Of a DNA stretch of 64,000 bases, positions 14,982 to 62,354 are shown in pieces. How positions within the stretch are numbered: position 1 is the stretch's first letter; every line of letters begins with the position of its first letter. The DNA lies in the NCBI GenBank assembly GCA_964645535.1, contig CAZYCQ010000003.1:1-64000 (forward strand). Reading direction: 5' to 3'. Made by a program: the position numbers and the translations under genes. The notes under the pieces were generated by a model. That model saw only the letters and a list, made by a program, of their open reading frames with translations, did no database searches and was not told where the DNA came from. The stretch is from an uncultured archaeon. Lineage in GTDB: Archaea; Asgardarchaeota; Heimdallarchaeia; Heimdallarchaeales; Kariarchaeaceae.

Positions 14982-15359
14982 ATGACTTATCCAAAGGAAG
15001 ATTTCAAAAAGTTCTTCCTCCCCGTCTATCTTGTTTGGGGGATTGTAAATCCAATCCTCTTGATGATCCCGAAATCCTTCTATGGACTGTTTGTTGCCTT
15101 TTCTTGGAATGGTCTGCTTCGTTTTGTCTCCTTCTACATGATTTTTGGCGGGATATGGCCCCTGACCATAATTGTATACCCTGCATTTCTCAGCTCTCCC
15201 GAAATCACTTCTGATCCATTTTACCTAACAGTGACCTATATTGCTCTTGTAGGTCCTATTCTTACCTTTATTCTTCAGCTAATTCGCCATAAAAAATTCG
15301 TTGAGGAAAGAAAAGGCGAACCAATCACATTTTCAGATTATCTGTGGGATTTCATCTAG
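14982..15359 (+). CDS. Small integral membrane protein (about 3-4 TM)
   Basis: Hydrophobic segments throughout with a charged C-terminal tail; ATG at 14982 preferred over the TTG at 14913. Confidence 0.65.
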   Translation: MTYPKEDFKKFFLPVYLVWGIVNPILLMIPKSFYGLFVAFSWNGLLRFVSFYMIFGGIWPLTIIVYPAFLSSPEITSDPFYLTVTYIALVGPILTFILQLIRHKKFVEERKGEPITFSDYLWDFI

Positions 15360-15474
15360 TTCGAAGGATAAATCAAATTCTACCGTTACACTCCCTAATT
15401 GTTATAATCACTTGTGTGAAACACGAATTAGTTCAACCAATTAGTGCATTCATTAATGCAGTGGTGATAAAACT

Positions 15475-17685: not shown

Positions 17686-19304
17686 GCAATTTTCTTTGTC
17701 ATGTAGAATCTATTCAATTTATAACCAAATTTTTCGTAATATTTTCGTACACCTACACCAGAAATAATTGAGAGATAATCGTATCCTGCATCTTCCGTCA
17801 TTTTTTCAGCAAAGGCAAGAAGTCTTTTTCCATAACCTCGATGCTGAAAACTTTCGTAATCACGACCGCCAATCTGTAATGACGAACCATATACATGCAG
17901 TTCTCTTACAATTGCGGATCCAGTAAGCTCAGGAATGAAGATATCCTTGCTAGGAAACCTGAGCCTGAGAAAACCAATCAAAATATCATTGGGGTCTTCA
18001 AAGGAAATGAAATGTTCCATTCCTTCAGAGGCTTCGTACGATCTAACTCTAATATCAATGGTTTCAGGGTCTGGAGGGGGATTGCCTTTATAGATATGAT
18101 GACCAACCTCCCTACACCTAATGCATTTACAGACGGCATTGAGTTGTTCCATTTGTTCCTGTATACGTTTCCTCATATCACCCCATGTAGCACCGCCAAT
18201 GACAAGGTTGATGGGAAGATCCCTTAAAGCACGTTTAATTCTTACATAAGGTGGAGTCATTTTCTTGGCTTCCAAGATGATATGGAAGGTTTCCTCATTT
18301 GTCAAGGGTTTATATTTACCATCAACAGCCATCTGAGCCAAAGGAGTGTTTTCTATGACTTGGGTCGGATAAATCTTGATCTCATCCGGAATAAATCTAG
18401 GATCATAATAGAGGGTTCTAAAATCTTCGATGTCAATCTCGGGGGTAGTTCCGGGAAGACCTGGCATCATGTGCGCAGTGACCTTTAGTCCAGCGTCTCG
18501 AAGAGCTTTGAAGGATGCAACTGTCTCTTTGACACCATGACCCCGATTGACGAATTTAAGGACATCTTCCTGAAGAGTCTGAACACCTACTTCAACACGG
18601 GTAACCCCATATTCGAGCATCTGAACAATATGTTTTTCCAATGCCCAATCAGGCTTAGTTTCAAAGGTTAGTCCAACACATCGGTATTTGGCAGTTTCAT
18701 TTTTTCGTTTGGCCTCTTCAATGGTTTCTGAACGTTCTCCATTTAATGCTTCGTAAATTCCCAGCATGAATTCATCTTGATATGCCTTCGGTGTGCTGTT
18801 GAAAGTTCCTCCCATGACAATGAGATCTATTTTCTCGGCATTGTGGCCAGTTGCTTCAAGCTGTTTGATTCGCGATTTTAACTGTAAAGTGGGATCAAAG
18901 CCGTTCTGGATTGCTCTCATGGAAGCCGGTTCCCGACCAGTATATGACATTGGAGTTCCCCAAGAGGGTCCCCCCGGACAGTAAATGCAAGCCCCATGCC
19001 GGCATGGAAAAGGCGCAGTCATTACAGAAATGACATTGACGCCTGAGATGGATCGGACATTTCTGATCCTGAGAATTTTTTTAAGTTCCTCAATATCTTC
19101 CCTAGTCTCCATTGCATAGGTTAAAAGATCAGAATTACGGGGAAAGCGTTTAAGATGGTATTTGGTGGATATTCTGCGTTTTATTGTTTCGAGCCGTTCC
19201 TTGTCAGGCTTTTCTTCAATTACTTGATCAAGGATTTCATCGAAAGCTGTCTTCATGACAGTATCCATAGCAGAGGTGTCGAACAAGAGGATAAATTCCT
19301 CCAA
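17682..19304 (-). CDS. elp3: Elongator-type tRNA U34 acetyltransferase Elp3 (radical SAM + KAT)
   Basis: VRSISGV, CRHGACIYCPGG, SYTGREP, MGGTF, KIYPT, RELHVYG, QHRGYG, ISGVGVRKYY. True start may be the ATG at 19268. Confidence 0.96.
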   Translation of the reverse strand: MEEFILLFDTSAMDTVMKTAFDEILDQVIEEKPDKERLETIKRRISTKYHLKRFPRNSDLLTYAMETREDIEELKKILRIRNVRSISGVNVISVMTAPFPCRHGACIYCPGGPSWGTPMSYTGREPASMRAIQNGFDPTLQLKSRIKQLEATGHNAEKIDLIVMGGTFNSTPKAYQDEFMLGIYEALNGERSETIEEAKRKNETAKYRCVGLTFETKPDWALEKHIVQMLEYGVTRVEVGVQTLQEDVLKFVNRGHGVKETVASFKALRDAGLKVTAHMMPGLPGTTPEIDIEDFRTLYYDPRFIPDEIKIYPTQVIENTPLAQMAVDGKYKPLTNEETFHIILEAKKMTPPYVRIKRALRDLPINLVIGGATWGDMRKRIQEQMEQLNAVCKCIRCREVGHHIYKGNPPPDPETIDIRVRSYEASEGMEHFISFEDPNDILIGFLRLRFPSKDIFIPELTGSAIVRELHVYGSSLQIGGRDYESFQHRGYGKRLLAFAEKMTEDAGYDYLSIISGVGVRKYYEKFGYKLNRFYMTKKIA

Positions 19305-19305
19305 C

Positions 19306-19479
19306 CTAAACTGATCTTTTGGTTCCTTGTCCCACAGGTTTCATTTTGATTAATCTGTTGTAGTAGTTTTTCCTGTTTCTCATTCTGGGGGAAGGGTGTT
19401 TCCTGTTTGGATACTTCTTCTCAACTTTTGGTGTCCTTTTTCGGACAATACCTGCGTTCTGTAGTCTTCCGTGGGTCAT
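19306..19479 (-). CDS. rps30e: 30S ribosomal protein eS30 (57 aa; absent from the ORF track)
   Basis: Manual translation gives MTHGRLQNAGIVRKRTPKVEKKYPNRKHPSPRMRNRKNYYNRLIKMKPVGQGTKRSV, matching the eS30 pattern HGsLxxAGxVRxxTPKV...PRxRNRxxYxxR; GGAG upstream; next to nop5-fibrillarin. Confidence 0.92.
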   Translation of the reverse strand: MTHGRLQNAGIVRKRTPKVEKKYPNRKHPSPRMRNRKNYYNRLIKMKPVGQGTKRSV

Positions 19480-27087: not shown

Positions 27088-29415
27088 TTATGATGCAAGA
27101 CTCATTTGTGCCAAGTTTGCCTGTATGGAATCAAATTTAGATTCGATAAATGTAAGTGCGTCATTGAAATCAGTCAAAGTTTGAGTTATTCCATTATCAG
27201 CAACATATTGGGAGGGATCAGCCAAAATTGTCTTGATTTTGCCCATTCCTTGTGGTCCCTGGATATCTTTTATATCCTGGATTATGCCACTCATTGATGA
27301 GTCGACATTTGAAAGTTGTGTCATACCTCCTTCGACAAAGGCCAATGTCAGATTACCTTTTGCATTGGTGATAAACACAACCGAATCATTGAGTCGACCG
27401 TCCGCATCTGTAAGGTTTGCATCCATATTTGGTGCTCGGTTGTTCAGTTCAGCAATTTTCGATGCATCATCTGGTTGCGATTGAATGACTTCAACATCTG
27501 TTTTAATACTATTAACATCAATTTGGATGTTTTTCATTTCTTTGGCCATCAGGATGATGTTCCTAAAGGCATGAGCCAAATAAATGAAGTTCTGTGAGTT
27601 TTGTGTCACATTGAAAGAAGCAAGGAGCGAAGTAAACTGTAAGGCAGGTTGGGTGAACAGACCATAGTATCCCGGATCTTCAGCATTCTTTGACATATTG
27701 TCCAAGGATGCTTGAAGAGAAAAGGCTGTTTGGTTCAAGACAATTGAATCGTTCAAGACCTGACCAAGTGAATCAAACGAATTGTCATATTCATCATCTG
27801 TAATCGTGGTGAAATTCTTTGTTGGATCAGTGAAAATCGACAATGATTGGTTTGTCAATTCGAGAACAGGAACAATTTGAGAACCGAAATTACCGAGATT
27901 AATAGCAACATCACTGGCATCTTTCAGAAAGTTGATGGAGGAGGACACTTGTTCCTTGACACCAGAAATGAGTGTAGTATTCGATTCAAGCTTTTGGAAA
28001 TTGTCAAAAGCAGGATCATTCAAGGCATTCCTGAAAATAGTTAGGTTGCTCACTACATTTTCGAAGAAGGAACCCGTTCCTGAAAAGTCTGTTTTATCTC
28101 CAATTTTTGAAGCAGCTTGATGAAGTTCCCTTGTTCCTAAAAGGAGATGAATAAGAGCAGCCCTTTCTGAAAGTTGTCCATTAACCTCAACAGGATTGAT
28201 CAAGACTGCGAACATATCAATCGTCGCATTGAAAATTTTGGCTCCTTCTTGAATGAGGACAACTTGTTCTCCAATACCTTGATCTCCAAGAGATGCTTGA
28301 AGCTCGTCCACTTTGATTTGAGCCATCTTTGACACTCCCGCCTTGATGTCATCAAGGGAATCACTGATATTTTGCATCCCTATTTCAATATATCTAAGAC
28401 CTTCCTCAAATTGATCTTCTGTTTGAGCCATGGCAAGACCGGTCAATGCACTTGTACCAAATTCAGAGAAAGCTTTTTCGAAACCGATCTTAAGATTGCC
28501 AAAGCCAACGACTAAAGGCCCAACTCCGTTTGCAAGGTCAACAATACTATCAACCAAGTTGAAGCCTTCCGAAACAAGGACAGAATATTGTGGTGCAGAG
28601 GCATCTACTATTGAATTGATCCCCAGACCTTGTAGACTTGTCAAAACTTCTCTAGCGTCTTTGAACCAAAATGTTGCATTGGCAAAATAATCATCAACCA
28701 GCGAGAAATTGCCGGTTTCGAAATTATTTTGCAATTCTTGAAATCCTTGACTCATGTAGGCTCCACCCAAAGCCATGTCTCCACCAAACTGTGATAATCC
28801 AGAAGCAACAGTCATGGAATATGGCAAAGCGATGACACCAATCACCAAAAAAATGATTGTGAATATGATGGAAAAGATGATGAGAACATTGGGTTTCTTT
28901 GAGAACATTCTTACTAAGAGGGTGAGTCCTATGCCCCCAATCATCATCGCAATTAAAGCCACCACTACATCAATAACAAATAAGTAATCTTTGTATTGAT
29001 TTGCCAAAGTCAGATTATCTCCCAATTGGGTAGACAATTGTTCATTAGCTGCCGCAACTTTAAGCATTTCATTGACAACCGGTGAAAGGTAAACAAATAG
29101 ACCAAACAAGTCTGTAAATATTGATGGAAGAACCCTTGGAGGAGCAAAGCTAAATGCAACAACAAGAGGGATCCCCAACAACATCTTCAGGATACTTTTG
29201 GTGAAGAGAGCCAAAATGAAAATTACCAAAACACCAAGCATATAGGCAATTAATCGATGAACCATATTGGTGTCTGGTGATAAAGCAAAGGTAACTACAA
29301 CCTCAAGAACTAACATAGCGATTATTGAAAAGAGAAGACCCTTGAGCAGAGAGCCTTTGATTTTTCCACTTTCCTTTTCTTCGAGACCAAAATCATGATC
29401 ATAGTCTTCAGACAT
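27088..29415 (-). CDS. Membrane glycoprotein: about 5 N-terminal TM helices plus a helical ectodomain of about 570 aa
   Basis: Five hydrophobic segments in the first ~200 aa with basic cytoplasmic loops (FTKSILK, RMFSKKP); 16 N-x-S/T sequons, all on the predicted outer side. Confidence 0.75.
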   Translation of the reverse strand: MSEDYDHDFGLEEKESGKIKGSLLKGLLFSIIAMLVLEVVVTFALSPDTNMVHRLIAYMLGVLVIFILALFTKSILKMLLGIPLVVAFSFAPPRVLPSIFTDLFGLFVYLSPVVNEMLKVAAANEQLSTQLGDNLTLANQYKDYLFVIDVVVALIAMMIGGIGLTLLVRMFSKKPNVLIIFSIIFTIIFLVIGVIALPYSMTVASGLSQFGGDMALGGAYMSQGFQELQNNFETGNFSLVDDYFANATFWFKDAREVLTSLQGLGINSIVDASAPQYSVLVSEGFNLVDSIVDLANGVGPLVVGFGNLKIGFEKAFSEFGTSALTGLAMAQTEDQFEEGLRYIEIGMQNISDSLDDIKAGVSKMAQIKVDELQASLGDQGIGEQVVLIQEGAKIFNATIDMFAVLINPVEVNGQLSERAALIHLLLGTRELHQAASKIGDKTDFSGTGSFFENVVSNLTIFRNALNDPAFDNFQKLESNTTLISGVKEQVSSSINFLKDASDVAINLGNFGSQIVPVLELTNQSLSIFTDPTKNFTTITDDEYDNSFDSLGQVLNDSIVLNQTAFSLQASLDNMSKNAEDPGYYGLFTQPALQFTSLLASFNVTQNSQNFIYLAHAFRNIILMAKEMKNIQIDVNSIKTDVEVIQSQPDDASKIAELNNRAPNMDANLTDADGRLNDSVVFITNAKGNLTLAFVEGGMTQLSNVDSSMSGIIQDIKDIQGPQGMGKIKTILADPSQYVADNGITQTLTDFNDALTFIESKFDSIQANLAQMSLAS

Positions 29416-29477: not shown

Positions 29478-29909
29478 TTAAAGCAATTTTAATGCTTTGG
29501 TGATTGCATCAACCTGATCTGCTGGAGCGGGGCCAATTGCGATTGCAGTTGTGGTGCCAGGTTCCAACTGTGTTAGTCCTGCATCGTTTATTATCGATAC
29601 AGGTAATTTTTTGCTTTGAGCCTGCTGAAACAAACCTCTCAATTCTTCTTCACTATTGACTTTACAGACTACCTTTTTGCTTCCCAAACGTTCCCACCTA
29701 TCAAACCATTGTGGATGTTGGCGTTTTGCTTTAAATGCTGCTCTGACAGCGGCATGTGCACCCTGTGCAACCATCTTCCCTTTTCCCATCTTTAGATCCG
29801 TTCGTAAGACAATAACTTGTTTGGCTTCAAAATTCGTTGTTTTAACAAATGGAATTCTCATTTTCTTGTATTGAGTTTCGTCCGTTAAAGGTTTATTGAA
29901 TGGGTTCAT
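29478..29909 (-). CDS. pth2: Peptidyl-tRNA hydrolase Pth2
   Basis: KQVIVLRTDLKMGKGKMVAQGAHAA, KKVVCKV, DAGLTQLEPGTTTAIAIGP. Confidence 0.97.
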   Translation of the reverse strand: MNPFNKPLTDETQYKKMRIPFVKTTNFEAKQVIVLRTDLKMGKGKMVAQGAHAAVRAAFKAKRQHPQWFDRWERLGSKKVVCKVNSEEELRGLFQQAQSKKLPVSIINDAGLTQLEPGTTTAIAIGPAPADQVDAITKALKLL

Positions 29910-30214
29910 TCAATGAGATCTAAAATTATCCCGTCCTCTGGAGGCCACCGTCTTTCCTCCACTTCTGTCCTACAGATAAGGCATCGGTATATCACACGTT
30001 CTGCCTGTTCCATATCATCATAGACAAAGTCCTGTATCAGGCCCCTATCACAGAGGATATCATGTTTGCATGCAGGACAGTAGTAATAGAATTTAGGATC
30101 ACTTGGTTTTCTCGGTTTCCATAGATAGATGGAACATTGGGAACAGACTTTTCTCGAATCGCATCTCAAGTGATGGGCAATAACGACCATATTGTACTTA
30201 TGAATTCCTATCAA
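29906..30214 (-). CDS. Cys-rich (probable double Zn-finger) hypothetical protein
   Basis: HLRC, CSQC, CPAC, LC, CLIC; ATGA overlap with pth2; start may be the ATG at 30190. Confidence 0.65.
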   Translation of the reverse strand: MIGIHKYNMVVIAHHLRCDSRKVCSQCSIYLWKPRKPSDPKFYYYCPACKHDILCDRGLIQDFVYDDMEQAERVIYRCLICRTEVEERRWPPEDGIILDLIE

Positions 30215-35498: not shown

Positions 35499-35612
35499 GA
35501 TGGGATTACCTATAGAAGCATTCGATACATCCACAAATCAAAATTGCGCTTAGAAGCATTCACAGTGCAATTTTGGTTTGCGGGTGCGCAACACGAGGTG
35601 GAAAATCTCCTG

Positions 35613-38600
35613 ATGAAAGTAAGAAAAACGGTTCGAATAGCTCTCATAATTGGGTTAATTGCCCTTTTAGGTGGTTCGACATTTGCTAGTGCTTATGTCG
35701 CAAATTCGAATACACAACAAGTCAATAATCAGTTGGAGGAAAATGCTCACTATTACACATTTCCATCCAATTTGATTGGGATCTTTTATGACCATAAGGA
35801 CGAAGTGGCCAAAACAACTGGTGAGGCCCTAGTCAACTCCTTATCCCTCATGACTCCTAATGTTGAAGGGTATGAGATAAGTAGCTTGGATGCAATTCCT
35901 GAAATTTTTAGAAGAAAGAACTTTGATATTGCAGTCTACGTTTTCCAGAGCGATGCAAATGGATTAAAGATTAATGGAAATTTCAAGGAAATAAGTTATT
36001 CGTGGAGTCGTTCGGCTTCTGTCTTCAATCAGATCATAGACAGATATCCGAATGTGGAACATGTCTTTGCAATGGGAAATACCCTTCAATTGATGAATAA
36101 GTTAAATGATAAAAGACATGTCCATGCATCACAAGAAGAAAAAGTTGACGCTAAACTAATTTACCTCTATGCATTGTGGACTTTGGCGGATATTCTTGAG
36201 GCCAGAGGAGGAAAACATGCTTCTCTAGGAAACGACATTCGAATGGCTTCGCTCAAATTTTTTGCAAATGAATTTAATGATATCGCAGCGAGAAACATTG
36301 AGCCAGAAAGTCCATTGGGCGAAGAATCCCCACGTACAGTAGAAGCTAGAAAACAACGTTTCTTCGAAGAACATCCTCCAAAGGTCGAAAAAATTCCGAG
36401 AGATGGCTATGTGATAGATCCACAAACAAAAAGGGAAATGAATCCGGAAACTGGAGAAATAAGAACTGATGGATATGGAGGAGATATTTTCCCTATTGAA
36501 GCAGCAGGTGTCGGGGATTTTATTGTTAATCTGATACCAGAGGAAACCGGCTTGAGGGGACCGGTTGGAGGAATAGTTGATACTCTATTAGGGTTCCTGA
36601 TCGACAAGATCGGGGATGCAATTGGTTTGGATGCCTCAACCGTAAACCAAATCTTTGATTTGATCACATCAATTCCGGATCTGGTAGGACTGATTTCTGA
36701 CCCATCAGCAAGCAAAATCAAGCAATTTATTGATAAGTTACGCCCAATGCTTCCCATCCCGCAAGATTTGGATCCATATATAGATCTCTTGATAGACGGT
36801 CTATTCCTTTTAAGGGGAGATGGAGGTGACATCCAAAACTTCATTTTTTCAGCTGTAGAAATGCTTGTCCCAGAGGATATCCTTGATCCATCTATTTTGG
36901 ACATTATCAAGAATGTGGTTACCTTAGGACAAAGAGTTTTTGACAGGATATCTGAAGGCGGAAACATCATTGACATTATCTTTAGTGTTCTGAATGAACA
37001 GATTTTGTACAATGTTACCACGGCATTGGTTGGAAATGGAACAATCTTTGGCATGACTGTATCGGAAATTCAGGACTTTGTCCAGAAAGCAAATGCGACA
37101 ATTTCCACCATTGTCAATTTCATTTCCACTAGAGATATTGAAGGATTGATCTATACATATGGTCCAGATTTACTCAATTTTGCATTCTCTGAATTCAATC
37201 TTGATGAGAACTACTCTGAAGTTGTTATGCTTGCAGTTGGTATTTTACTGACTGCTTTGGGCGTTTCTGATGACAAGACGATCGAGGATCAACTTGTGGA
37301 ACTTCTAGACAGATTAACACCAATCGATCTGGCAACCATTAAAGCAAAAGCCGAAGAGATTGTTAAGCTTGTAGGAGAGGCAGTGGAGACTGGAGCCACT
37401 TCGTTAACCGACATGCAGAATTCAATCTCAACCCTGCTGACGGAGCTCTCAATTCCTGCAAGTATAGCGGATCCGATAAATGACCTAATGGCCATTGTTG
37501 TAGCGGCCAAAAATGTAAATCTTAACACATTTCCGTCTTTTGCAGACATGATTCTGAATTTTGCGGAAGGATTGGGGGTTCCCAGCCAATATACGGAATC
37601 ATTGCGTGAGGTTGTTACCTTTGTCATGGGTGTAGTTCAATTCGTAATGCATCCACCTCGTATAGAAGATATTCTCGCCAACATTTTAGGGACATCCTCT
37701 TTGTCGGATTTGATTTCCCAAGGAATTCAGTTCATACTCAATTTTGTCCAAGGGATCCTTCCCACATCAATGACTACACAATCGGTAAGCAATGCACCAA
37801 ATCGATTTGCAGCAATAAAAGTTAATGAAGTACTGACTGCAGAAGACCTCATTTCACAAGCTGGAGACTATATTGGACTCATTTTCCAGGTTATTGAGTC
37901 GGTTCAAGGAAATTCAGTCCAAGGAGTTCTTCTTTCCTTACTGCAAAGTGCCATGACTGTGTTCATTAACTTCGTCCCAGATGATTTCAGACCTCTTGTG
38001 GAAGTTGCTAAGTCTATTTTTGGAGTGATCGTTGGAGAAACAGACCAATTACCTTCAGTAGAAGAGGTTCTGAATGCAGTTCTTCCATTATTGCCTTCTT
38101 CAGTAGCCGATGTAGTTCGACAATTCCTTCCATTCATCATGATGATCAGTGACGTATTTACCAATGGATTTGAAGCCATTTTTGCACAACTCTTTGGTTG
38201 GGTTTCAGGTCTTGTTGAAGATTTAATTGATGAGCTGGTCGGAAGTCTGTCTTCTGCATTGGACGGTGCAGATGGGATTTCGATTGATTTTGATGTCCCA
38301 TTAGGTGTTGGATCTTTTTCACTCTTTACCATCAAACTACATTTTGGATTAGATTTTGGTTTGGAATTTGATGGAGAAGCTTTTGGAAGAATGCTCTTCG
38401 ATTTGATTTTCCGAGGAGCAAGTTTATTCAGTTCATCAGATCCTTTCGATGTCCTCAAAACGCTAGCTTCGGTAATTTCAATCGTACCAATTTTTGAAGC
38501 AGGATTTGAAATAGGAGATTTTGGATCTGGATCAAATAGTTTCTTGGATTTCATGCTTACCTCATTGGGAGTTGATCTTTCATTCTCTGGAGAAGGATGG

Positions 38601-41600
38601 TTTAAGCTCCAACTCTTTTCATTCAAGAATGGAATCTTCAGTTTTGATGATTTCTTCAAGGTTCTTGAATGGGGATTTTCATTTACGATTACCATTAGTA
38701 GAACCTTTACGTTGCTTGATTTTCTCACAGGCGGTGCTGGTGGAAGTCTGAATGCAATTGGAGAATATATCGGGCTGGATGCCATTAGTATTACTATTGC
38801 ATTCACGCTTGCATTTACAATTGTCAAACGAGCAGCCACTGCAAATCAACCAGAGACGGGATCTATGACAATAACGTTTACAATTGGGTTTACCGTCTCA
38901 TTAGGGATCGATATCGTTATTGCAAAACTGATACTCAAAGGAACTTTAGAGATAACCTTGACATTATTGCAAGACTTGGTGGCACCGACACCGTTACGGG
39001 TGTTTATAGCAATTCAATTGACAATAACGGTAACGATAGGTTTCTTGTTCTTTGATTGGGACTTTGATTATAAATGGTCACCAAGTGGATTTGAACCTCC
39101 ATTGGGATATGAATTGACTTCACCAACACCAGAAGATGCAGTCCAGAATGGAGCCCTTGGTGGAGACACTGATGGAGATGGACTTGGTGATGAGTATGAG
39201 AAAAATACAGCAGGACTGAACTATCAGTCTGATGATACAGATGGAGATACCTTAAGTGACAAATACGAAACTCAAACTTTGAAGACCGATCCCGCATCAA
39301 AGGATACTGATGGGGACGGATTGGATGACAACGTAGAATTAGATCTCAAAACCAACCCCTTGTTCCCAGATACAGACTTTGATGGTCTGACTGATTACGA
39401 GGAAGCAAGTATCTATGGTACTAATCCACTTTCAATCGATACTGATGAAGATGGATTGGATGATAAGTACGAGATCTTCCATTCCTATAACATGACGGGC
39501 ATCACACCTTCGGTCAGTCAAATCATGATTGGAGGTGTCCCATATGATGACCGAACGGATCCTTTGAACCCTGATACCGATGGAGACGGCTTATTGGACG
39601 GTGAAGAAGGATCAAGAGGGATCTATTATGGACCCGAGTTAGTCGGAGGAGAGGATGATTATGGATATACTCCAGATCCTCCCCTCATTTTCAATGGAGG
39701 TTATACGCACCCATTGGACAATGATACCGATGATGACTCCTATTGGCAATTATATGACGGATCAATCGCTCCTGTAGAATCTCCCTACATTATGAATCTT
39801 GGAGATAAGGTTGAAATTGAGGGGCTTACCGTTATTTTGATTGACCCATTAACGGGTGAACCTGAGCCTCCACGACTTATCAGGACAAACCCTGTGAATC
39901 CTGATTCCGATGGAGACACAGGTGCTACCGCGGAAGATCGAAAGAACCCTCCATTTGGCTTCTTCATGAACTCCGATGGATACGAGCTCGGTATTGCCCA
40001 TACCGACCCCCTTGACGGAGACACGGATGATGATGGATTGATCGATGGTCTTGAAGGTATTTTGAGGCCAGATTCAAATCATACAGATCCATTGAATCCA
40101 GATACAGATGGAGACGGATTGGGTGACATGCAGGAACTCCTGCTTGGAACAGATGCCCGAAGTGTCGACAGTGATCTCGATGGAGTAACCGATTCCGATG
40201 AATATTTCCTCTACGGAACCAATCCTTTCTTGGCCGACACTGATTCAGACGGATTGGAGGATGGAGAAGAACTGTATCTATACCATTCCTCACCATTTTC
40301 CAAGGACTCTGATGCAGACGGGTTAGATGATTACTCAGAAGTCTGGAAGTATTTCTCGGATCCCATGGATGAAGATTCCGATAATGATGGGCTAACTGAT
40401 TTCGAGGAAATCAAGGTCTACTATACGGATCCATTCATTGATGACACCGATGGAGATGGTCTGTTGGATGGAGAAGAGATTGCAGGCTTGCCATATACGA
40501 CAGAAAACGGAACACAGTATCTGATTAAAACAGATCCAACGAAGTGGGATACTGATGGAGATTCCTTGACCACCATCAATCAATTTGGAGAGATGAGCAT
40601 GCCAATGTCAGATGGACAGGAATTCCTCCTCGGAACAGATCCAACAAGAAAGGACACAGATCTTGATGGCCTGGAAGATGGATGGGAAATGTGGCTCGGA
40701 AAGGGTGAAATCCCCAATTTTGAGCCAATTAATCTTGATCCTCTTTCCAATGATACGGATGGAGATAACCTGATGGATGGAACTGAGTTGGTAATCGCAA
40801 ACATTAGTACGCTACTTTATCCATACGTTGGGAATTTCATTCAAACACCATTCAATACATCAGCAGTCAATCCAGATACTGATGGAGATCAATTGCCAGA
40901 TGATGAGGAATTACGTATCTACGGTACCGATCCAAGCATACCTGACACCGACAATGATACAATTTCAGATTATGAGGAATTGATCATTTATGGAAGTGAT
41001 CCTGTCCGAAATGATACGGATGGCGACGGATTATCCGATCCACAGGAAATTTTCGGTTTTGATCCTGAAAACCTTACTCTTGCAACCAATGCCATCCTCT
41101 TTACGGATTTCAACAAATCAGACTCGGACGGAGATCTTCTTCCGGATGGTGCAGAGGTTTTCTTCTATAATACCGATCCAACCAACCAAGACGAAAATGG
41201 AAATGGCATCGTTGATGGAATGGAGATAGATACAGACGGAGACGGGTTGTTTGACGGCGAAGAGTATTACATCTTCCAAACTCAGCAGACACCAGAAGGA
41301 GGAGGTATCCTTCAGGTGGACAGTGACCATGATGGGCTTTTCGATGGTCAGGAAGTGTATGAAACACTGACAAATCCCGCAAATTGGGACAGTGATAATG
41401 ATACCTATTCTGACGGTTTAGAAATCTATTGTGGAACCAACCCTAATGGCAACACCACAGAGTCTGAGATTTCCGCATGTTTCGCAGGTTTGGAAAGGGT
41501 AGTGATACTCTCCCCAGCTCAAACCACGTATCATACGAATGCAATTCCCGTGATTGTGTATGATGCGACAGGAAATATGACTGCCATGGAATATCGTTAC

Positions 41601-42218
41601 AAGCCAGAAAATGGCAGTTACAGCGCACCGATACCCATGGTAGAAACCTCCAACCCAGGATATTGGGAAGGCACGTCCCTATCACTTCCATTGGCAAATG
41701 GTACATATACCCTAGAGGTAACCATCACACGACCTGACTTGACGACATTCTCAAGGACGGTTACTTTCACGATAGATCTGGGTCCAGGATCGATTAATAT
41801 TCTGACGCCAGAGGAACGTACCTATTCCTTCAATGAACTTCAAGATCCTGAACTCCCGGTAAAGGTTGAAGCAGGAATAGAATACACATCCCTCTGGTTC
41901 AGAATACGATGGGACAACGGATCAATATATATTGACAACACTACCCTGAACTTCGAGAGCGGCCTAAATGCATATTATAACAGCTCAATCAAATTCCCGA
42001 AGATCAGAGGAACTACGAATTACACCATTGAAGTATTCGGACAGAAGACAAATGGTGAAATCCTAGTAAAAGCACACAGGTTTGCCATCAAGACACCGAC
42101 AATCATGGAGAATGTGGTCATAGTTGCCCTTCCGGTTGTATCCATAGGTGCAGTGGCCGTGGTTGGAAAATCTGTGGTCTCTAGCGGGTTCAAGAACCCC
42201 TTCAAAAAGAGGAGTTAG
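35613..42218 (+). CDS. Giant secreted, C-terminally anchored surface protein with thrombospondin type-3-like Ca2+-binding repeats (about 2200 aa)
   Basis: Signal peptide MKVRKTVRIALIIGLIALLGGSTFASA after a GAGGTG SD (ATG 35613 preferred over TTG 35544). Then an alpha/beta domain, amphipathic helices, hydrophobic beta strands, about 26 D(T/S)DxDGLxDxxE repeats, two Ig-like units (VILSP.., INILTP..), TM VVIVALPVVSIGAVAVVG and a basic tail. Confidence 0.88.
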   Translation: MKVRKTVRIALIIGLIALLGGSTFASAYVANSNTQQVNNQLEENAHYYTFPSNLIGIFYDHKDEVAKTTGEALVNSLSLMTPNVEGYEISSLDAIPEIFRRKNFDIAVYVFQSDANGLKINGNFKEISYSWSRSASVFNQIIDRYPNVEHVFAMGNTLQLMNKLNDKRHVHASQEEKVDAKLIYLYALWTLADILEARGGKHASLGNDIRMASLKFFANEFNDIAARNIEPESPLGEESPRTVEARKQRFFEEHPPKVEKIPRDGYVIDPQTKREMNPETGEIRTDGYGGDIFPIEAAGVGDFIVNLIPEETGLRGPVGGIVDTLLGFLIDKIGDAIGLDASTVNQIFDLITSIPDLVGLISDPSASKIKQFIDKLRPMLPIPQDLDPYIDLLIDGLFLLRGDGGDIQNFIFSAVEMLVPEDILDPSILDIIKNVVTLGQRVFDRISEGGNIIDIIFSVLNEQILYNVTTALVGNGTIFGMTVSEIQDFVQKANATISTIVNFISTRDIEGLIYTYGPDLLNFAFSEFNLDENYSEVVMLAVGILLTALGVSDDKTIEDQLVELLDRLTPIDLATIKAKAEEIVKLVGEAVETGATSLTDMQNSISTLLTELSIPASIADPINDLMAIVVAAKNVNLNTFPSFADMILNFAEGLGVPSQYTESLREVVTFVMGVVQFVMHPPRIEDILANILGTSSLSDLISQGIQFILNFVQGILPTSMTTQSVSNAPNRFAAIKVNEVLTAEDLISQAGDYIGLIFQVIESVQGNSVQGVLLSLLQSAMTVFINFVPDDFRPLVEVAKSIFGVIVGETDQLPSVEEVLNAVLPLLPSSVADVVRQFLPFIMMISDVFTNGFEAIFAQLFGWVSGLVEDLIDELVGSLSSALDGADGISIDFDVPLGVGSFSLFTIKLHFGLDFGLEFDGEAFGRMLFDLIFRGASLFSSSDPFDVLKTLASVISIVPIFEAGFEIGDFGSGSNSFLDFMLTSLGVDLSFSGEGWFKLQLFSFKNGIFSFDDFFKVLEWGFSFTITISRTFTLLDFLTGGAGGSLNAIGEYIGLDAISITIAFTLAFTIVKRAATANQPETGSMTITFTIGFTVSLGIDIVIAKLILKGTLEITLTLLQDLVAPTPLRVFIAIQLTITVTIGFLFFDWDFDYKWSPSGFEPPLGYELTSPTPEDAVQNGALGGDTDGDGLGDEYEKNTAGLNYQSDDTDGDTLSDKYETQTLKTDPASKDTDGDGLDDNVELDLKTNPLFPDTDFDGLTDYEEASIYGTNPLSIDTDEDGLDDKYEIFHSYNMTGITPSVSQIMIGGVPYDDRTDPLNPDTDGDGLLDGEEGSRGIYYGPELVGGEDDYGYTPDPPLIFNGGYTHPLDNDTDDDSYWQLYDGSIAPVESPYIMNLGDKVEIEGLTVILIDPLTGEPEPPRLIRTNPVNPDSDGDTGATAEDRKNPPFGFFMNSDGYELGIAHTDPLDGDTDDDGLIDGLEGILRPDSNHTDPLNPDTDGDGLGDMQELLLGTDARSVDSDLDGVTDSDEYFLYGTNPFLADTDSDGLEDGEELYLYHSSPFSKDSDADGLDDYSEVWKYFSDPMDEDSDNDGLTDFEEIKVYYTDPFIDDTDGDGLLDGEEIAGLPYTTENGTQYLIKTDPTKWDTDGDSLTTINQFGEMSMPMSDGQEFLLGTDPTRKDTDLDGLEDGWEMWLGKGEIPNFEPINLDPLSNDTDGDNLMDGTELVIANISTLLYPYVGNFIQTPFNTSAVNPDTDGDQLPDDEELRIYGTDPSIPDTDNDTISDYEELIIYGSDPVRNDTDGDGLSDPQEIFGFDPENLTLATNAILFTDFNKSDSDGDLLPDGAEVFFYNTDPTNQDENGNGIVDGMEIDTDGDGLFDGEEYYIFQTQQTPEGGGILQVDSDHDGLFDGQEVYETLTNPANWDSDNDTYSDGLEIYCGTNPNGNTTESEISACFAGLERVVILSPAQTTYHTNAIPVIVYDATGNMTAMEYRYKPENGSYSAPIPMVETSNPGYWEGTSLSLPLANGTYTLEVTITRPDLTTFSRTVTFTIDLGPGSINILTPEERTYSFNELQDPELPVKVEAGIEYTSLWFRIRWDNGSIYIDNTTLNFESGLNAYYNSSIKFPKIRGTTNYTIEVFGQKTNGEILVKAHRFAIKTPTIMENVVIVALPVVSIGAVAVVGKSVVSSGFKNPFKKRS
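39165..41445 (+). repeat. Array of about 26 bacterial-TSP3-like coding repeats, consensus T(D/N)PxxxD(T/S)DxDGLxDxxE
   Basis: Counted by eye from DTDGDGLGDEYE to DSDNDTYSDGLE; repeats are divergent at DNA level. Confidence 0.88.
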
Positions 42219-42229: not shown

Positions 42230-45200
42230 ATGAAACTTCGACAAATCAAATTATTAATCCTCAATCTTTTCCTTATCGGAATTCTTTCCCTGTCATCAGT
42301 CATTTCAGTGCAGGCAGGGACAATAGGTCAACAAAAGAATGACCAAAAGATCCAACCCAATGATTGGAAGGACGGGATCAGGGATGAACCTCCCTCCTTC
42401 ATAGATTCAAATGCAGGTTATGATGAAAACACGGATCTTGGTGCATTCCTGAGTGACAATGACAATACCTATGGATTAAAATGGGATCCTTGGGTAACTA
42501 AGGCAGCAATCCATGCAATTGCAACCTATAAAAACGGCGATTATTTGGCCTTGGCAGGTGGTTTTCTATATGACAATGAAATTCATCTGTATAGGTGGAA
42601 TTATGTCACGGATCAATACGATCTCGTCTCAGAAATCGGTTCTGGAGTATTCAAATCAGATGTAATGTCCTTGGATTTCGCAGATACGGACTACAACAAT
42701 CTGACTGAAATAATAGCCGGAAGCATGGATGGTAGATTCTATGTATTTGAACAGAGACATCTATATGACCCATATACCAACAGTGAAAATACATTCGATC
42801 TAGTGTACCAAAGTCCTCGTCTAGGTCGTGTGTTTGATATTATTGTTGGAGACCCAGACATGGACTTTCGTCAAGATATCATTGTCGGTTTGGGAGATAC
42901 GGTAAAGTGGTATGAGTATGATACCCATGGAAGCTATCCCTTTGGCCCAGATCATTTCATAGACTATAGAGAGGTCTTCTCCTATCAGATGCCTTCGCAG
43001 GTCACAACTCTTGGACTCTCTGATGTGGATTATGACGGTCTCCAAGAAGTTGCAGTGGGAATGCGATCTGGTGAAATCCAGCTATTGGAAAACAACGGTA
43101 CCACACTCTATATTAATGGCTATCCCTACCCAATTGTCCAAGACAATAGCTATCGCTTTATGTGGTCATCAGGAACCCTCATTCAAAGAGATATTACCGA
43201 TATGGCTGGTGGTGACATCGATGATGATGGTCACAATGAATTGATGGTCGCGGTACAGGGCCAAGGTGCATACGTCCTCGATAATATTGATGGAGTTATT
43301 GCACCATTTCGGATTGAACGCCCGTTTGCTGATTGGGAAAGCAATATGACAGCACCATATTCTCTTGACCACTATGCAGATTCGATGGTGAATTCCTCAA
43401 GTTTGTTCAATGGCACACTTCTTCCTGTGGGTCAGGCGAATGTCTATTATGCAAATATAACAGGCACGTTTCCAGAGCCACTCAATTATTCGGTTTCCCA
43501 CTATAAAGTATATCCGTTCAATTCATTTTTAGTCCGAAAACCAGGTGATGGAAGACCGACAACATTTGATGCCACTACACGTCCCGCATGGGCAATCATG
43601 GACTTCGGAAATGATGAGGAGGCTGCCGGAAATGGAGCTCCAGTTGTTCCAGAACTCTTCATTTACGCAATGAAAAACAAGGCTGTTGCAGTTTCTGATT
43701 TAGAAATTTCCATTTCATCAGATGGTAGTAACTTTTTCAGGTTAAATTCATCATACATTACTTTAGATACCTCCAATGGTACCTATGACATCTACCAGAT
43801 TGAAGTTGATCCAACTCTTGCCGTTGCTGGATTGACGTATTACCGGTATCTCAACATTACCGTCTTGAGTGGCAAGGCTGAATTGGATTTTATTGAGACC
43901 ACTGCAATCAATAATCCGATATATGATGCCCAATCAGTGGAAGTTGGTCCATTAACCTTGAAAGATTCCGATGCAAATACCGTTGGGTTTATCGGTGCGA
44001 TTGATGGAACAATATTGGCAGTTGATTGGAACCCGACAAGCCGAAGGTACGAAATTGTTTTCGATAGTTGGAGAGAAGAACGATACAAACTCAATAAGAA
44101 TCTCTTTGACCTAGAGGTAATCAAGAAGAAAGGAACCTTCCCAGCGTGGATATTGAACGATTACGACAGTGTAATAGGGAATTTCCAATATGGTGTCTAT
44201 GATCCAGTCAACTTCACAAATTATGGAAATGTTGTTTCCTTTGAAACTGCCAATTTCTATAATTACAGACAGGAATCCATGCCAGAAACAATATTGATTA
44301 CGGATCAGGAAAAAATTTTGGTAGCCACACAGGCTTCTCCAAATGCTCCGTTGTCAGTTAACTCCATTTTATCTGAAATGCTATTTGACACACCATCATA
44401 TTCTGGAACTGCTGGAAAGAATATGCTAACGGTACAAGATTATATGCAATCTCGAAGTAGCCTCTCGTCAGATCCGATTTATTTTGCGGCATCACTCGTA
44501 CCCTTTGAAACCAATCTATATGATTTGGGAAGGGATGCGCAACTGGATATCCGTGATTCCGGCTATCTTCTCCTATTAAGTGAATGGACCGGTTCATTGG
44601 GCCCTGCAAATCCAACCGAGGCAGGGATTCCTCAACCCTTAGATGGAGTAAACCGGATTACCATTTGGTATCTTGATGAGATTTTCTCCTTCGATTGCCC
44701 TGCCGGTGTGCCAGAATGTGTAACATTTGTTCCTTGGAGCGTCCCTGGATTAACATCTCCGAGATTGTTGTCTTCTGAAGAATTCTCAGGTCAACTTCGT
44801 AGTGTCCTTCGAGAATCCTCATGGATGCCAAAAATAGCAGCAGGAGATTTCATCGGTGATTCAAAGAAAGATTGGGTATTGACAAACGGAAAGGTACATC
44901 TTCTTGAGGTCTCGTACAGTGTAGTTGAGAACAGTACATTGGATCTTGTATATAACGGTCAAGAAGAACAGCAAGGCCCTAAGCTTCCAGCAATCACAAA
45001 TGAACGATCTTCCAAAATCAGCATTTCCTTCAGAGGTGATTATTTCAAAGGAATCAATGACCAAGCAAAGGGTAGACAATGGACTGATGCAAATGTAGTT
45101 GATTTCGACAAAGATGGAGATATGGATCTTATTTTGGGTTTTGCAAGTTACGATTCAACCCACTTCGGAATTGATAAGCCTACGTATGGGATGACCTATT

Positions 45201-48200
45201 GGGAAAACGTGGGAACTAGAGACGATCCAATATGGGTTGAAAAGAAAAAGGCAGTCACCAATAATGATCCAGATTCCAATCTTAGAGTCCAGTATTATGG
45301 GTTCCCTGAACTGGTCTATGATAATTATGATTTTGGAGATTATTCCTTCATTAGTGGAATGGGTTATCATCCCTATTTCTTGAATTCCCAACCAACAAGG
45401 ATGTTCATGATGAAACAGCAGCCAACAGATGTTTTTGCAGGGGACATTTACAGTTTCACAGCAGAATACAATCATGGAACCTCACTTCTTGCAGCCACCT
45501 ATCCGGATGCCAAACGGATTGACATTAACCTACAATTTGACAGCTCCAATGGTGGAGACAAGAATTATGGCTTCCACATTTTTGAGACATGGGATAATTC
45601 AAGGGAACTTGAAGGATGGACTCTTTCGATGTCGACTGCCGACCTTGACGAAGACGGTAAGAATGAAGTTGTTGTTGGAGATTTCAATAATAACATATAT
45701 GTTTTTGAACATCTTTCCAACAACACATTCAAACGGGCCTTCAGATCATTCGATGTTAACAGAACGTTTGAGGCAAATAACAGCCCTTATGCCCATAACC
45801 AGTTTGGTGGAATTAATGGTACATTCTTCCGAACCGTCTATGAGCATGTAACCTTCTTGCTTGCAGGCGTTGACTTGAACAAGAACGGACTTCAGGAATT
45901 CATAGCAACGACAGACGGAATGCTATTCGTTTTCGAAGCGACAAAAACATTAACAGGAAGAATTCATGATGACACGTACCGGTTAATTGCTACCTTTGAT
46001 CTTTTCTCTTTCCCCACAGTTTCACTTCTCTCAGAGAGCCGCCGAAAGGTAACCGCAATCTCTTGGGCAGATGATGCAACTGGTGATGGAAGAAGAGAAT
46101 TGCTGATTGCAATGGGTCCCGCTCTCTTAGTTTTCGAAATCTCGACTGTTACAAGTGGAAGTGGCAATATCCAACAAACTTCAGTTATTTCCACACAATT
46201 CCCACTATTCAACATGGAAGAGATTTTCTATCGAGGCCTATATGCGGCATCCGGTCTCTACAATCTAGTTGGAAACTATCGTGTCCAAGAAGAAGCAGAA
46301 ATCAGATCCATTTTGTCCACTGATTTGGACAATAATGGAATCCCTGAAATCATTTATGCAGGAGAAGATCAAACAAATGCCAGACCAATTTGGGGCGGTT
46401 TCATCCAAATTCTTGAATGGACTGGAGGTGTTTTCTCCCCTATCTTTCCAGACAATCTATTCAAGAGCACAACGCAATTCAACCCAATAAATGATCTTGA
46501 ATGGGATGATTCTGACTATGATGGATTAAAAGAACTAATCATTGGCCATAATCAAGGTGTTGATATCTATGAATTCAATGGAGTTGATAATCTTGAACTT
46601 CGAGAGGTGATCACCTCAAATCCACATTATCAACTGCCCATTCGATCATACTATGACACTAACAACATCAATAGGGACTTTGAGGAAAGTAAAGACATCA
46701 TCAAGAGATTTGATGGTTCCTTATTGATGGTTTATGTCGAAGTAATTTTGGGAACACCCACATTGGTCATGGCCACCTCAAATGACAATGGCAAGACATG
46801 GACTGAATGGGGAACAATTGATCCAGGCCTAGGCACAGTTATCAATTATGCCGAAATTAGTCTTGTTTACCAAGGGTCTCAATTATGGCTAAGTTTTGCA
46901 GCGATATCGAAGATTAATCTAGGTGCAAGTTCAATTTGGACGGAATCGTATTATGTAATTAAAAATCCAGTACCTGGATCGAATCCAGCCTATTCAACCG
47001 TTTCAGTATCTTGGTTAAACTATTATCGAATGACCGCTTCTGGAAGGGTTTTCTCATTTGATGGAGCAACCTCCAACCAAGTGGGATTTGCATATTACGA
47101 TTCAGCGGATAAGAACGGAACGTTGAAGCTAGCTAAAATTGATATCGCGAATAGCCCAGCAGTTGTAGCGGAATTTGTAATTCCTTGGGCAAATGGTTCA
47201 AAACTTGGCGACAAGTATTTCATCCATTCGTTGGATATTCTGGAAAATCCAAGAGAAAGAGGTAATTTTGACATTATCTTTTCAGGATATTCCTATAACG
47301 AATCGTTATCATTGGATTTGGATCTTTATCACAATTGGTTTTATTTAAACAGCTCTTCAGCTTGGCTGTTCAATGTAACCACAATGCCAGGGAGAATCTT
47401 TGAATCAGGATTGGTAAGCCGTTTCCCCTCCCTGATTCGTGAAGAAGACACAAACAATATGGTTGTTGTATTCGAACAGCCAAAAATGAAACCATTCGGA
47501 GGTCTATTCTCTGTATGGTCGAATGATAACGGTGTCACTTGGAATGGTCCTTATGCCATGAACCATCCCTATGGCCTAGATAGTCCCATACTTACTGAAT
47601 TTCCCACACCTAACAAGGAAAGCTATCAAGTAGGTCTTATCAATGGACAACAAATACTCTCATTCTTTGACTCACGTAGACCGGTCATTGTTGCAACTGA
47701 AGGTCGAGGATTCACAATGAGCTACAATGTCAGATATGCTTTCGGAGTACAAAAGACAACTGTGGGAATTTGTGCAATGTTTTTGGGAGATGTAGGAGTG
47801 CAAAGCAGTGTTAAATCACAGGCCTCAGATTGTTCAAGGGGAAATGCAGAACTGGAATATTTGGCATTTGCCCACAACCCTTGGAGCAATTTCACTTGGT
47901 ATAATTTGGGCAAGGCTCAGAAAATTGCGATTGGAGATTCTGATGGCGACAATCGTCATGAAATCTTCGTGGGAAGCAACAACCAGGCCTTTCTCTATGA
48001 ATTTGCTCGAAATGGAGAGAAATTCATTTTGCATTCCCAAAAATGGATGAGTCCTGAATATGAGAGGGATATCACAGAAGTTGCAATCTCAGATGCAAAT
48101 GGTAATGGACTTCCAGAACTTCTAGTCGAATCGGATCGAGGCATTGTGCATTCCTATGAGGCATTGAATGCAATTCCGGGTAAGGAACTTCTTCTCCCCA

Positions 48201-61175: not shown

Positions 61176-62354
61176 ATGAAAATCCGCGCATATACATTCT
61201 CATGGTTACTCATCGCTTTCATGTTCGCTGCCGCGGGAACTCCCGCAGTAGTTGCTAACGTTGAAAGGCCAGTCAATGAGGGAATCGGCTTTGCCTATTT
61301 CGATAATTCCACTCGTGACTTTAATGTCGACATTTACTTTGTCGGTAACACCACACTTCCTGGTGGACAACTGCCCAGTGGAGGAACTGAAGGAGGGTTT
61401 GACGTTTACAACTATGAAACGGACACAGCAGTCCCCATTGTAAATGTTAAGTTCAATTACAGCGGACTCATCACCGTGAACGGATCTGATGCTGCTGGTC
61501 AAGCCTTTGTTGTTTCAAAGAACTTCCTTAAGATGGCCACATCGGGCGGTGAACACACCACCACGGGTTTTGCAGTTCCACTTTCTCAAGGAGATAACTT
61601 TGTTTCTGTCATCTATATTGCGGCCGACGAAAGTGGCAATTATCATTATGCCATTGACACGGTTATCGTCAGAGTAAGAGCTGATGGAAACTTTAATGAC
61701 AAGCCCACCTACAAGGATGGCAAGGTCACCTTCGATGTTGAAGACCAATTCTCTGAAGGATCCAAATATCCTCTGGACTATCCAGATTTCGATTACAATG
61801 ATCCAGTTACGGATCTCTCCTTCAAAAATTATGATGGAGAGACCATTGATGGAACTGCTCAAGCAACTGCCTTCGTTCAAGAACTTGGTCTTAATGTGAC
61901 TGGTTCCGTTAATTCAACTGGTACTGTCGCACTTGACCCTGACTTCCTCAATGGAACCGATGCAGTCAAGGGCAAACTATTCTATGTTGACGACTATGGT
62001 GTACATGACTTCCCAAGTGAGTTCAATTTCACCGGAGGTTCCCTCAACGCAACCTTCAAGACTTTTGACACTGTTGCTGATGCTGAGCTTGGTGGTGAAT
62101 CCTTCCTTGGAATGCTCACCTTTGCACCCAATGGAATTTTCTCTGGTGATGCTGAAAACTCTGATGCTGAGGCAACCTATTTCAGCGAATTTGGTGCCAC
62201 CTTGGATGGTGCTTCCTTCTTTGTTGTAGAAGGTAATGTAACCGTTACAACCGAAAGCACTGGTAGTGGCAGTCCAATCAACTTCGCGGCTGTTGGTTTC
62301 GGTTTGTTCTCAGCCAGCCTTGCAACATACTTTGTACGCAGAAGAAAGAAATAA
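61176..62354 (+). CDS. Acidic secreted surface glycoprotein with C-terminal sorting/anchor signal (S-layer-like candidate)
   Basis: Signal peptide; G/T/D/F-rich beta-type body with about 10 N-x-S/T sequons; T/S/G linker; SPINF + TM + RRRKK tail resembling archaeal CTERM sorting signals. Confidence 0.78.
   Translation: MKIRAYTFSWLLIAFMFAAAGTPAVVANVERPVNEGIGFAYFDNSTRDFNVDIYFVGNTTLPGGQLPSGGTEGGFDVYNYETDTAVPIVNVKFNYSGLITVNGSDAAGQAFVVSKNFLKMATSGGEHTTTGFAVPLSQGDNFVSVIYIAADESGNYHYAIDTVIVRVRADGNFNDKPTYKDGKVTFDVEDQFSEGSKYPLDYPDFDYNDPVTDLSFKNYDGETIDGTAQATAFVQELGLNVTGSVNSTGTVALDPDFLNGTDAVKGKLFYVDDYGVHDFPSEFNFTGGSLNATFKTFDTVADAELGGESFLGMLTFAPNGIFSGDAENSDAEATYFSEFGATLDGASFFVVEGNVTVTTESTGSGSPINFAAVGFGLFSASLATYFVRRRKK

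Follow-up and report, generated by a model that had tools for sequence, protein, structure and literature searches.

A predicted amphipathic sheet and helical repeats in paired giant surface proteins of Asgard archaea

Why would a giant surface protein carry, at the end that probably lies farthest from its membrane anchor, a block more apolar than any soluble-like protein of the same genome? The question is raised by positions 1 to 64,000 of contig CAZYCQ010000003.1, from an uncultured archaeon of the Kariarchaeaceae (this whole 64,000-nucleotide stretch of DNA is referred to as the window), where an open reading frame (ORF) on the forward strand (35544..42218) encodes a type I surface protein of 2224 aa, counted from TTG. 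An original prediction, made from the sequence alone, had pointed to repeated amphipathic helices over some 570 aa of this protein, followed by long hydrophobic strands, and proposed that these two blocks, together called the module below, form a lipid-holding cavity or else a pore-forming or fusogenic head. The five peptides that it quoted are all found in the translation of 35544-42218 (+), and its boundaries match the domain limits found here (36558 is aa 339, 38277 is aa 912 and 39077 is aa 1178). The locus belongs to a conserved two-gene unit encoding two giant type I surface proteins, and the best-conserved piece of the module protein is a predicted amphipathic sheet that has no family assignment. 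Statements about folds rest throughout on model confidence, secondary structure and structure-search scores.

The amphipathic sheet of the module

The unusual apolar content of the module is borne out by comparison with the rest of the genome. The grand average of hydropathy (GRAVY) of aa 339-1178 is +0.58 (+0.53 for the helical part and +0.68 for the beta part), which exceeds that of all 1277 soluble-like ORFs of the same genome (mean -0.24, standard deviation 0.19, maximum +0.38), that is, ORFs of 250 aa or more that have no more than one transmembrane-like segment. The module ranks as the third most apolar 852-aa window among the 105 ORFs of at least 852 aa, and the two windows above it belong to polytopic membrane proteins with 39 and 14 transmembrane-like peaks. 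Kyte-Doolittle hydropathy is positive in every 50-aa bin over aa 301-1200 (+0.19 to +0.92), with Lys and Arg together at 2-10% per bin and mostly at 2-6%; in the calcium-repeat region that flanks the module, it lies at -0.4 to -1.4.

The beta block (aa 912-1178; 38277..39077) was modelled alone with AlphaFold2 (AF2), over aa 905-1190 and with a 43-sequence alignment, and the model is confident (pLDDT 87.3, pTM 0.75). It consists of ten long antiparallel strands of 9-19 residues in consecutive hairpins (aa 912-922, 925-937, 983-991, 1010-1023, 1039-1056, 1081-1096, 1105-1123, 1127-1144, 1152-1167 and 1170-1178); strands 2, 3 and 5 are each followed by short inserted amphipathic helices (aa 944-975, 999-1007 and 1057-1076); the helix at aa 944-957 bears an apolar stripe at i, i+3, i+4 and i+7. 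The long strands that had been read over aa 912-1178 are therefore seen in the model, where they form an amphipathic sheet with a very apolar face. Over 70 aligned homologues this face is made up of 81% Ile, Leu, Val, Phe, Met or Trp and 5% Asp, Glu, Lys or Arg, and the other face of 46% Ser, Thr, Gly or Ala, 29% charged residues of the same four types and 15% apolar ones, so that one face of the sheet should see water and the other should not. The alternation is conserved over these homologues. Against 1000 shuffles, the 180-degree hydrophobic moment of six of the ten strands is equalled or exceeded in no more than 5% of cases (in none of the 1000 for four strands); alternation is weaker in the remaining four, with shuffle fractions of 0.054-0.243.

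Conservation is concentrated in this part of the protein: mean pairwise identity is 59% in the beta block, 34% in the helices and 36% in the N-terminal domain, and 38 of the 51 invariant columns of a 29-sequence alignment fall within aa 912-1178. The most conserved motif of the module (aa 1059-1080; 38718..38783), which links strand 5 to strand 6 through a Gly-rich loop and a short helix, reads D-F-L-T-G-G-x-G-G-x-L-N-x-x-G-x-Y-I-G-L-D-A, its columns being invariant or nearly so; model confidence is locally lower there (pLDDT 67 for the 10-residue block aa 1065-1074). The hydrophobic hairpin tips of the original prediction likewise correspond to conserved residues. Column profiles and strand limits place bulky apolar runs at two turns, one between strands 7 and 8 (aa 1124-1126; 38913..38921), an I/L-x-I run whose columns hold I/L, V/F/I and I, and one between strands 9 and 10 (aa 1167-1170; 39042..39053), where F-L-F at aa 1167-1169 (80%, 82% and 79% of sequences, respectively) is followed by W/F. 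If the sheet is a simple meander, strand order would bring both apolar turns and the Gly-rich loop to one end of the sheet, and the chain termini together with the charged loops (K-N-G, K-R-A-A-T-A-x-x-P-E and Q-D-L-x-x-P-T-P) to the opposite end.

Structure searches relate the beta block to membrane barrels. With the block alone, Foldseek places FepA first (E 5.5e-4, template modelling score, or TM-score, 0.39) and the EspP barrel next, with MTP at rank 15, and transmembrane beta-barrels fill all of the best 50 matches in each of three structure lists; two of the lists were searched with the whole module, and the beta block took every one of their best 50 places, leaving none to the helical block. 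Barrels of 16-26 strands fit the beta block at 3.2-5.5 Å over 155-209 residues; the fit of the seven autotransporter barrels with 12 strands is poorer, at about 8-8.7 Å, and that of KdgM, which is also 12-stranded, is 5.2 Å over 128 residues. This better fit to 16-26-strand barrels, taken with the short edge strands, argues for a sheet of low curvature, which is probably open and curved like a segment of a wide membrane barrel of 16 or more strands. By its predicted fold, the block thus belongs to a class otherwise seen in lipid-embedded barrels. No match to it was found at E ≤ 1e-3 in the BFVD viral library, whose best entries were phage-encoded barrel proteins. A two-copy complex prediction of the block (score 0.00, mark 0.42) speaks neither for nor against self-association.

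In sequence searches the module stands by itself. Pfam and NCBIfam recognised nothing in aa 1-1200 of the protein, the only match being to TSP3 repeats downstream; barrel families were absent from both for the protein itself (P0001) and from 20 members searched at E ≤ 10. Vitellogenin_N and open-beta-sheet families of Pfam gave no match for P0001 at E ≤ 0.1 and none for the 20 members at E ≤ 10. A search of the Protein Data Bank (PDB) with the single block sequence returned nothing under E 0.57, and a profile search returned, inside the block, only FtbJ (E 1.2e-3) and designed helical proteins, all at E ≥ 1e-3. As far as these searches can tell, the module belongs to no known protein family, and no description of its family turned up in a full-text literature search. 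Leads from the ESM Atlas were set aside for both the beta block (unnamed bacterial clusters at 0.92-0.93 and DUF6603 at 0.84, with a recognition value of 1528, under the meaningful level) and the N-terminal domain (unnamed clusters scored 0.90-0.91; a CHAT domain, carried by 15% of cluster members, scored 0.89 as a weak lead).

Architecture of the protein, its family and its partner gene

Translation of the giant ORF likely starts not at the TTG but at the ATG at 35613 (aa 24). The N-terminus that follows (35613..35693) resembles a signal peptide, with a basic n-region, an apolar core and small residues ahead of aa 51, and may be cleaved; a hydropathy scan detects a transmembrane-like segment at aa 29-53. 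Next come a conserved N-terminal domain (aa 55-335; 35706..36548), the helical block (aa 339-907; 36558..38264), the beta block, the calcium repeats (about aa 1200-1950), a further beta-rich region and a transmembrane anchor. The N-terminal domain has no Pfam or NCBIfam match and no PDB sequence match under E 0.077; short apolar strands alternating with helices give it an alpha/beta look. The Asp-rich calcium-binding region (39141..41393) matches bacterial TSP3 repeats in seven stretches (PF18884, E 3.2e-29, 100.8 bits against a curated cut-off of 25), all outside the module, and a PDB profile search relates it to a biofilm surface protein (E 5e-5). Asp makes up 12-24% of the residues in 14 of its 15 50-aa bins and 6% in the other, aa 1401-1450. 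The C-terminal transmembrane segment (aa 2185-2214, maximum 19-mer hydropathy 2.37) and a short basic tail occupy 42096..42215.

A signal-like N-terminus and a C-terminal transmembrane segment with a basic tail were present in all 26 full-length homologues inspected. Whether the signal is cleaved or kept, this topology would place the module outside the cell and, with the TSP3 repeats between it and the anchor, at the end farthest from the anchor, in agreement with the stalk that had been proposed for it. The cytoplasmic tail (42180-42215, aa 2213-2224) carries F-K-N-P-F-K-K, a motif of the form F[KR]xPF that recurs in 15 of the 26 homologues and to which a cytoplasmic factor might dock; elsewhere in the family, clades conserve tails of another kind, such as F-L-F-W-R-R-K-E-G-G.

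The repeated amphipathic helices read over about 570 aa are recovered both by modelling and by profile comparison. An AF2 model of the module (aa 339-1190, 29-sequence alignment; pLDDT 63.5, pTM 0.50) folds residues 340-907 into about 25 helices, of which the last (aa 852-907; 38097..38264) is 56 residues long and runs into the sheet. Comparison of the family profile with itself gives off-diagonal matches of 97.3, 96.1, 87.8 and 86.8% probability over 224-358 columns, at shifts of about 131, 200, 325 and 52 residues, and a tile-by-tile comparison agrees; by this sequence criterion the block is a tandem array of diverged repeats whose base period is near 65 residues. Helix positions are 44% apolar family-wide, with 12% Asp and Glu and 6% Lys and Arg. 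A single 19-mer of the block attains transmembrane-like hydropathy, which argues that its helices are not membrane-spanning.

How widespread is the family? Thirty homologues came out of a word-seeded search, nearly all of them 2170-2340 aa long, with 28-87% identity over the whole block. An organism name is attached to nine, each an Asgard archaeon (Kariarchaeaceae, Hodarchaeales, Heimdallarchaeota, Odinarchaeota and Promethearchaeota), so that, as far as named matches show, the protein appears restricted to this group; database names are limited to 'hypothetical protein' and 'PKD repeat protein'. HMMER over 1.84 billion representative proteins returned 58 matches at E ≤ 1e-3, 45 of them at E ≤ 1e-30, with the block at about aa 300-1200 in full-length matches and no protein of another family among them. 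Within the phylum, the beta block was found in 87 of 400 genomes, 37 of 85 genera and 24 of 90 high-quality genomes, mostly in ORFs of 2050-2300 aa, and the genome studied here holds a second copy on another contig (C23). TSP3 repeats accompany the block in all 16 longer distant members scanned and are absent from two truncated ones.

A short class of distant relatives of about 1510-1540 aa, whose beta block matches at E values of about 1e-9 to 1e-13, was examined at three loci (L026:5584-10113, L027:5553-10118 and L028:4373-8995, minus strand). All three keep the N-terminal domain with the same motifs, the beta block and the TSP3 repeats, and have only about 130-150 aa between N-terminal domain and sheet, compared with about 570 in the long class; these short-class helices give no significant alignment with the long helical block (probability 4.5%). 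As the short class keeps the sheet and is nearly without helical repeats, the sheet is the indispensable part. The constant unit is thus the N-terminal domain, the amphipathic sheet, the calcium repeats and the anchor, with a propeller partner, and the helical repeat array is an expandable addition. One metagenomic variant (P0043, 2800 aa), the only member of its cluster, combines part of the helical block with the beta block and TSP3 repeats and, in addition, has a PKD domain and an NlpC/P60 domain (aa 706-784, E 3.7e-7).

The partner gene (42230..50953, +) begins 11 nt downstream of the module gene and encodes an FG-GAP/beta-propeller giant of 2907 aa with its own signal-like N-terminus and C-terminal transmembrane segment. 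A homologue of this partner lies directly downstream on the same strand in all five other genomes checked, which represent four families, and one of these has two pairs side by side. The paralogous pair of the present genome (C23, about 5329-19415, minus strand) is in reverse order. In the short class, a giant NHL/FG-GAP propeller ORF is adjacent, starting within a few bases, at both loci whose neighbour was scanned (L026 and L028). The two proteins are even fused in one frame in P0039 (4348 aa) and in P0089 (4360 aa), which come from different sources, and at the pair locus of one genus, open frames of 4271-4901 aa are seen in five genomes. The second part of the fusion opens with its own signal-like segment, which suggests that both ectodomains stay outside.

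Beyond the pair, flanks are not conserved between families, and only two genomes of the same family (G134 and G137) share flanking genes. Other neighbours in the window are housekeeping genes (molybdopterin synthesis, an ABC-2 transporter, ETF alpha/beta, a PPDK-like protein, an M13 peptidase and a class I tRNA synthetase), together with four ORFs that have no Pfam match at E ≤ 1e-3: 27088-29412 (-, 774 aa), 29906-30211 (-, 101 aa), 61176-62351 (+, 392 aa) and 62503-63012 (+, 170 aa). The sequencing runs listed as containing the stretch are three DNA runs of one hot-spring study, labelled hot springs metagenome, and include no RNA run.

What the apolar surface may serve

The reading that we prefer, while holding it tentatively, is that an open amphipathic half-barrel, together with the helices, offers lipid-like material an apolar surface, either enclosed or exposed. 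The head module would stand at the far end of the TSP3 calcium-repeat region and the membrane anchor. Its conserved core would be a ten-stranded up-and-down sheet with one face almost purely Ile, Leu, Phe and Val and with the opposite face, rich in Ser, Thr and Gly and in charged residues, turned towards water. Ten strands probably cannot close, so the sheet would form an open half-barrel, over whose apolar face the inserted helices, the 56-residue helix and the array of about 65-residue repeats would lie. Sheet and helices would together enclose or present a large apolar interior, as a pocket for lipid or another hydrophobic ligand or as a membrane-contact surface, and the protein may use this surface, with the FG-GAP propeller giant as its partner, to make contact with other cells or with particles.

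When the whole module was compared with 350,542 PDB chains in Foldseek, large lipid transfer proteins took the first six places, aligned co-linearly over 720-807 columns (E 4.5e-5 to 8.2e-3, probability 0.30-0.96). Lipovitellin (1lsh) and two chains of MTP (6i7s) all have E ≤ 1.4e-4; vitellogenin (9ens), apoB-100 (9bd1) and another MTP (8eoj) have E 3.9e-3 to 8.2e-3. Of the candidates named by the original prediction, vitellogenin and MTP therefore do come out on top; against this stand TM-scores of about 0.1 and the lack of any Pfam match to such a family at E ≤ 10 in 20 members. No TULIP/BPI/SMP fold, AsmA/VPS13-type groove, LolA-like half-barrel or class II fusogen is among the matches listed, an absence that does not exclude them. 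Pore formers appear there only at probabilities of 0.02-0.11: with the beta block, Foldseek lists perforin (7pag) and C5b8/C5b9 at E 0.12-0.18 and probability 0.02-0.04, and none is among the best 50 in the other two structure lists covering this block. The Tc-toxin A subunits 6sue and 6rw8, listed for the whole module at probabilities of 0.11 and 0.07, were disregarded.

Several observations weigh against the preferred reading, in which lipid binding is deduced from sequence and a predicted fold. The lipid-transfer matches superpose poorly (TM-score about 0.10, rmsd 38-43 Å); even 1lsh and 6i7s, with Foldseek probabilities of 0.90-0.96 from E 4.5e-5, reach TM-scores of only 0.10-0.11 at an rmsd of 38-40 Å, for a query model with a pLDDT of 63.5. 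This whole-module model is mediocre, and the packing of helices on the sheet is accordingly not established by it. Pfam, NCBIfam and PDB sequence and profile searches found no sequence relation to any lipid-binding family, and no Pfam family recurs in the block at E ≤ 10 over this protein and 19 other members. Ile, Leu, Val, Phe, Met and Trp make up 42% of the module and 34% of residues genome-wide; Lys, Arg and Glu are each well under the genome average, and Ser, Thr, Gly and Asp over it. Part of the GRAVY excess thus arises from the kind of polar residue used, Ser, Thr, Gly and Asp in place of the scarce Lys, Arg and Glu, and not from extra apolar residues. The share of apolar helix positions, 44%, is that of ordinarily packed helices. 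Finally, of all parts of the protein the helical block is conserved least, and the short class nearly lacks it, so it cannot be an essential cavity wall.

A more conventional explanation, which we consider doubtful while taking it seriously, is an ordinary buried core: the apolar sides of sheet and helices would pack together, perhaps on the FG-GAP partner, to form a large, acidic Ser/Thr-rich head that serves adhesion or coat scaffolding and does not act on lipids or membranes. The normal apolar content of the helices fits this well, as do their regular Asp and Glu residues, the single transmembrane-like 19-mer and the 29% of charged residues on the polar side of the sheet, and a Lys and Arg content of 5-6% inflates GRAVY. 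Tandem helical repeats of variable number are typical of scaffolds, and the conserved pairing and fusion with the propeller giant would suit a protein-protein interface. Two reports (PMC13716822; bioRxiv 10.1101/2025.11.06.686947) moreover describe the surface of Asgard cells as an amorphous coat of protein and, in the relevant passages, name none of its components. On the other hand, the block is more apolar than each of the 1277 soluble-like ORFs, although a single sheet with a helical array has a high surface-to-volume ratio and would normally contain fewer apolar residues. The structural analogues of the sheet, among the best 50 matches, are only lipid-embedded barrels, and the three or four bulky apolar residues conserved in a row at hairpin turns also speak against a plain buried core.

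It is unlikely that the sheet inserts into membranes, several copies, or one rearranged copy, completing a barrel in, for example, the outer membrane of a bacterial partner, with the helices shielding the apolar face beforehand. The barrels that fill the best 50 places of three lists, with FepA and EspP best for the beta block, speak for such a role. Apolar and polar residues alternate strictly, and the apolar stripes of 6-8 residues per strand are enough to span a bilayer, and a half-barrel of ten strands with the curvature of about 20 could close as a dimer. The NlpC/P60 domain of variant P0043 may be added, as this superfamily includes cell-wall hydrolases. Composition points the other way: with 1.0% Tyr, 13.3% Phe and a GRAVY of +0.68, the block is unlike outer-membrane barrels, and no beta-barrel, pore-forming-toxin or fusogen family was matched by sequence. 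The inserted amphipathic helices would suit a soluble two-layer domain better, and this archaeal group has a single bounding membrane, described with a protein coat in passages of one report (bioRxiv 10.1101/2025.11.06.686947).

True, very distant homology to vitellogenin, MTP and apoB, in which a helical domain would precede amphipathic sheets that line a lipid cavity, is very improbable: the six co-linear matches and the reappearance of MTP for the beta block alone favour it, but superposition is poor, no such protein is among the best 50 of the three other lists, Vitellogenin_N and open-beta-sheet families are absent at E ≤ 10 in 20 members, the domain ahead of the helices looks alpha/beta by its sequence pattern and not like an N-terminal barrel, and the helical part is a variable repeat array that the short class nearly lacks.

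What would follow if the apolar surface does bind lipid or membranes? Asgard archaea live in close contact with partner cells. The sheet domain would then be a candidate for physical or lipid exchange between an archaeal host and a bacterial partner, a long-standing question of eukaryogenesis. In its boldest form, to which we give little credence, the module would be an extracellular lipid-handling device, a half-barrel capped by helical repeats that acquires, holds or exchanges membrane lipids, or apolar molecules of other kinds, from adjacent (bacterial) cells, on a calcium-stiffened arm and with an integrin-alpha-like propeller partner, as a functional analogue or very remote relative of large lipid transfer proteins; if so, such a device would be present in the lineage that gave rise to eukaryotes. 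Should the module be no more than a scaffold, the pair would still make a good candidate for adhesion and for a principal component of the Asgard cell coat. In both cases it offers a defined target for structure determination and for localisation by antibodies or cryo-electron tomography in cultured relatives.

Comparison with known systems

Four kinds of known systems resemble parts of the module protein or of its pairing. Outer-membrane barrels (FepA/FecA, EspP, LptD and porins) resemble the sheet in predicted curvature, which fits barrels of 16-26 strands, whereas the sheet has only ten. They are membrane proteins of diderm bacteria, and the sheet is an internal domain (aa 912-1178) of an archaeal type I protein of 2224 aa, with 4-13% identity to them and no Pfam barrel match; it is also rich in Phe, Ile and Leu, poor in Tyr, and has amphipathic helices between its hairpins.

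Large lipid transfer proteins share the order of parts, a layered helical domain and then large amphipathic antiparallel sheets. They differ from the module in that superposition is poor (TM-score about 0.1), there is no sequence signal and the N-terminal domain looks different; the sheet region of the module is much smaller (about 270 aa) and its helical part is a variable tandem repeat. The START-domain lipid transfer proteins of Asgard archaea, as presented in passages of PMC12139934, are unrelated small cytosolic proteins and were set aside.

The myxobacterial proteins CglD, MtsC and MtsD (NF033765, NF047639 and NF047638), which their NCBIfam names associate with gliding and cell-cell cohesion, are likewise large surface proteins with Asp-rich calcium-binding repeats. 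Their matches cover only aa 1535-1957 and lie far under the cut-offs (154 against 400, 55 against 800 and 20 against 350 bits, respectively), and the head module has no counterpart in them.

Integrin-type two-chain receptors, finally, offer a further comparison. The module protein matches no integrin beta, VWA or other integrin family, and sizes are three times larger than in integrins. As in those receptors, however, there are two conserved, paired type I proteins, one of them with FG-GAP repeats, and short basic tails; two type I proteins encoded side by side, or fused in one frame, form an arrangement reminiscent of a two-chain receptor.

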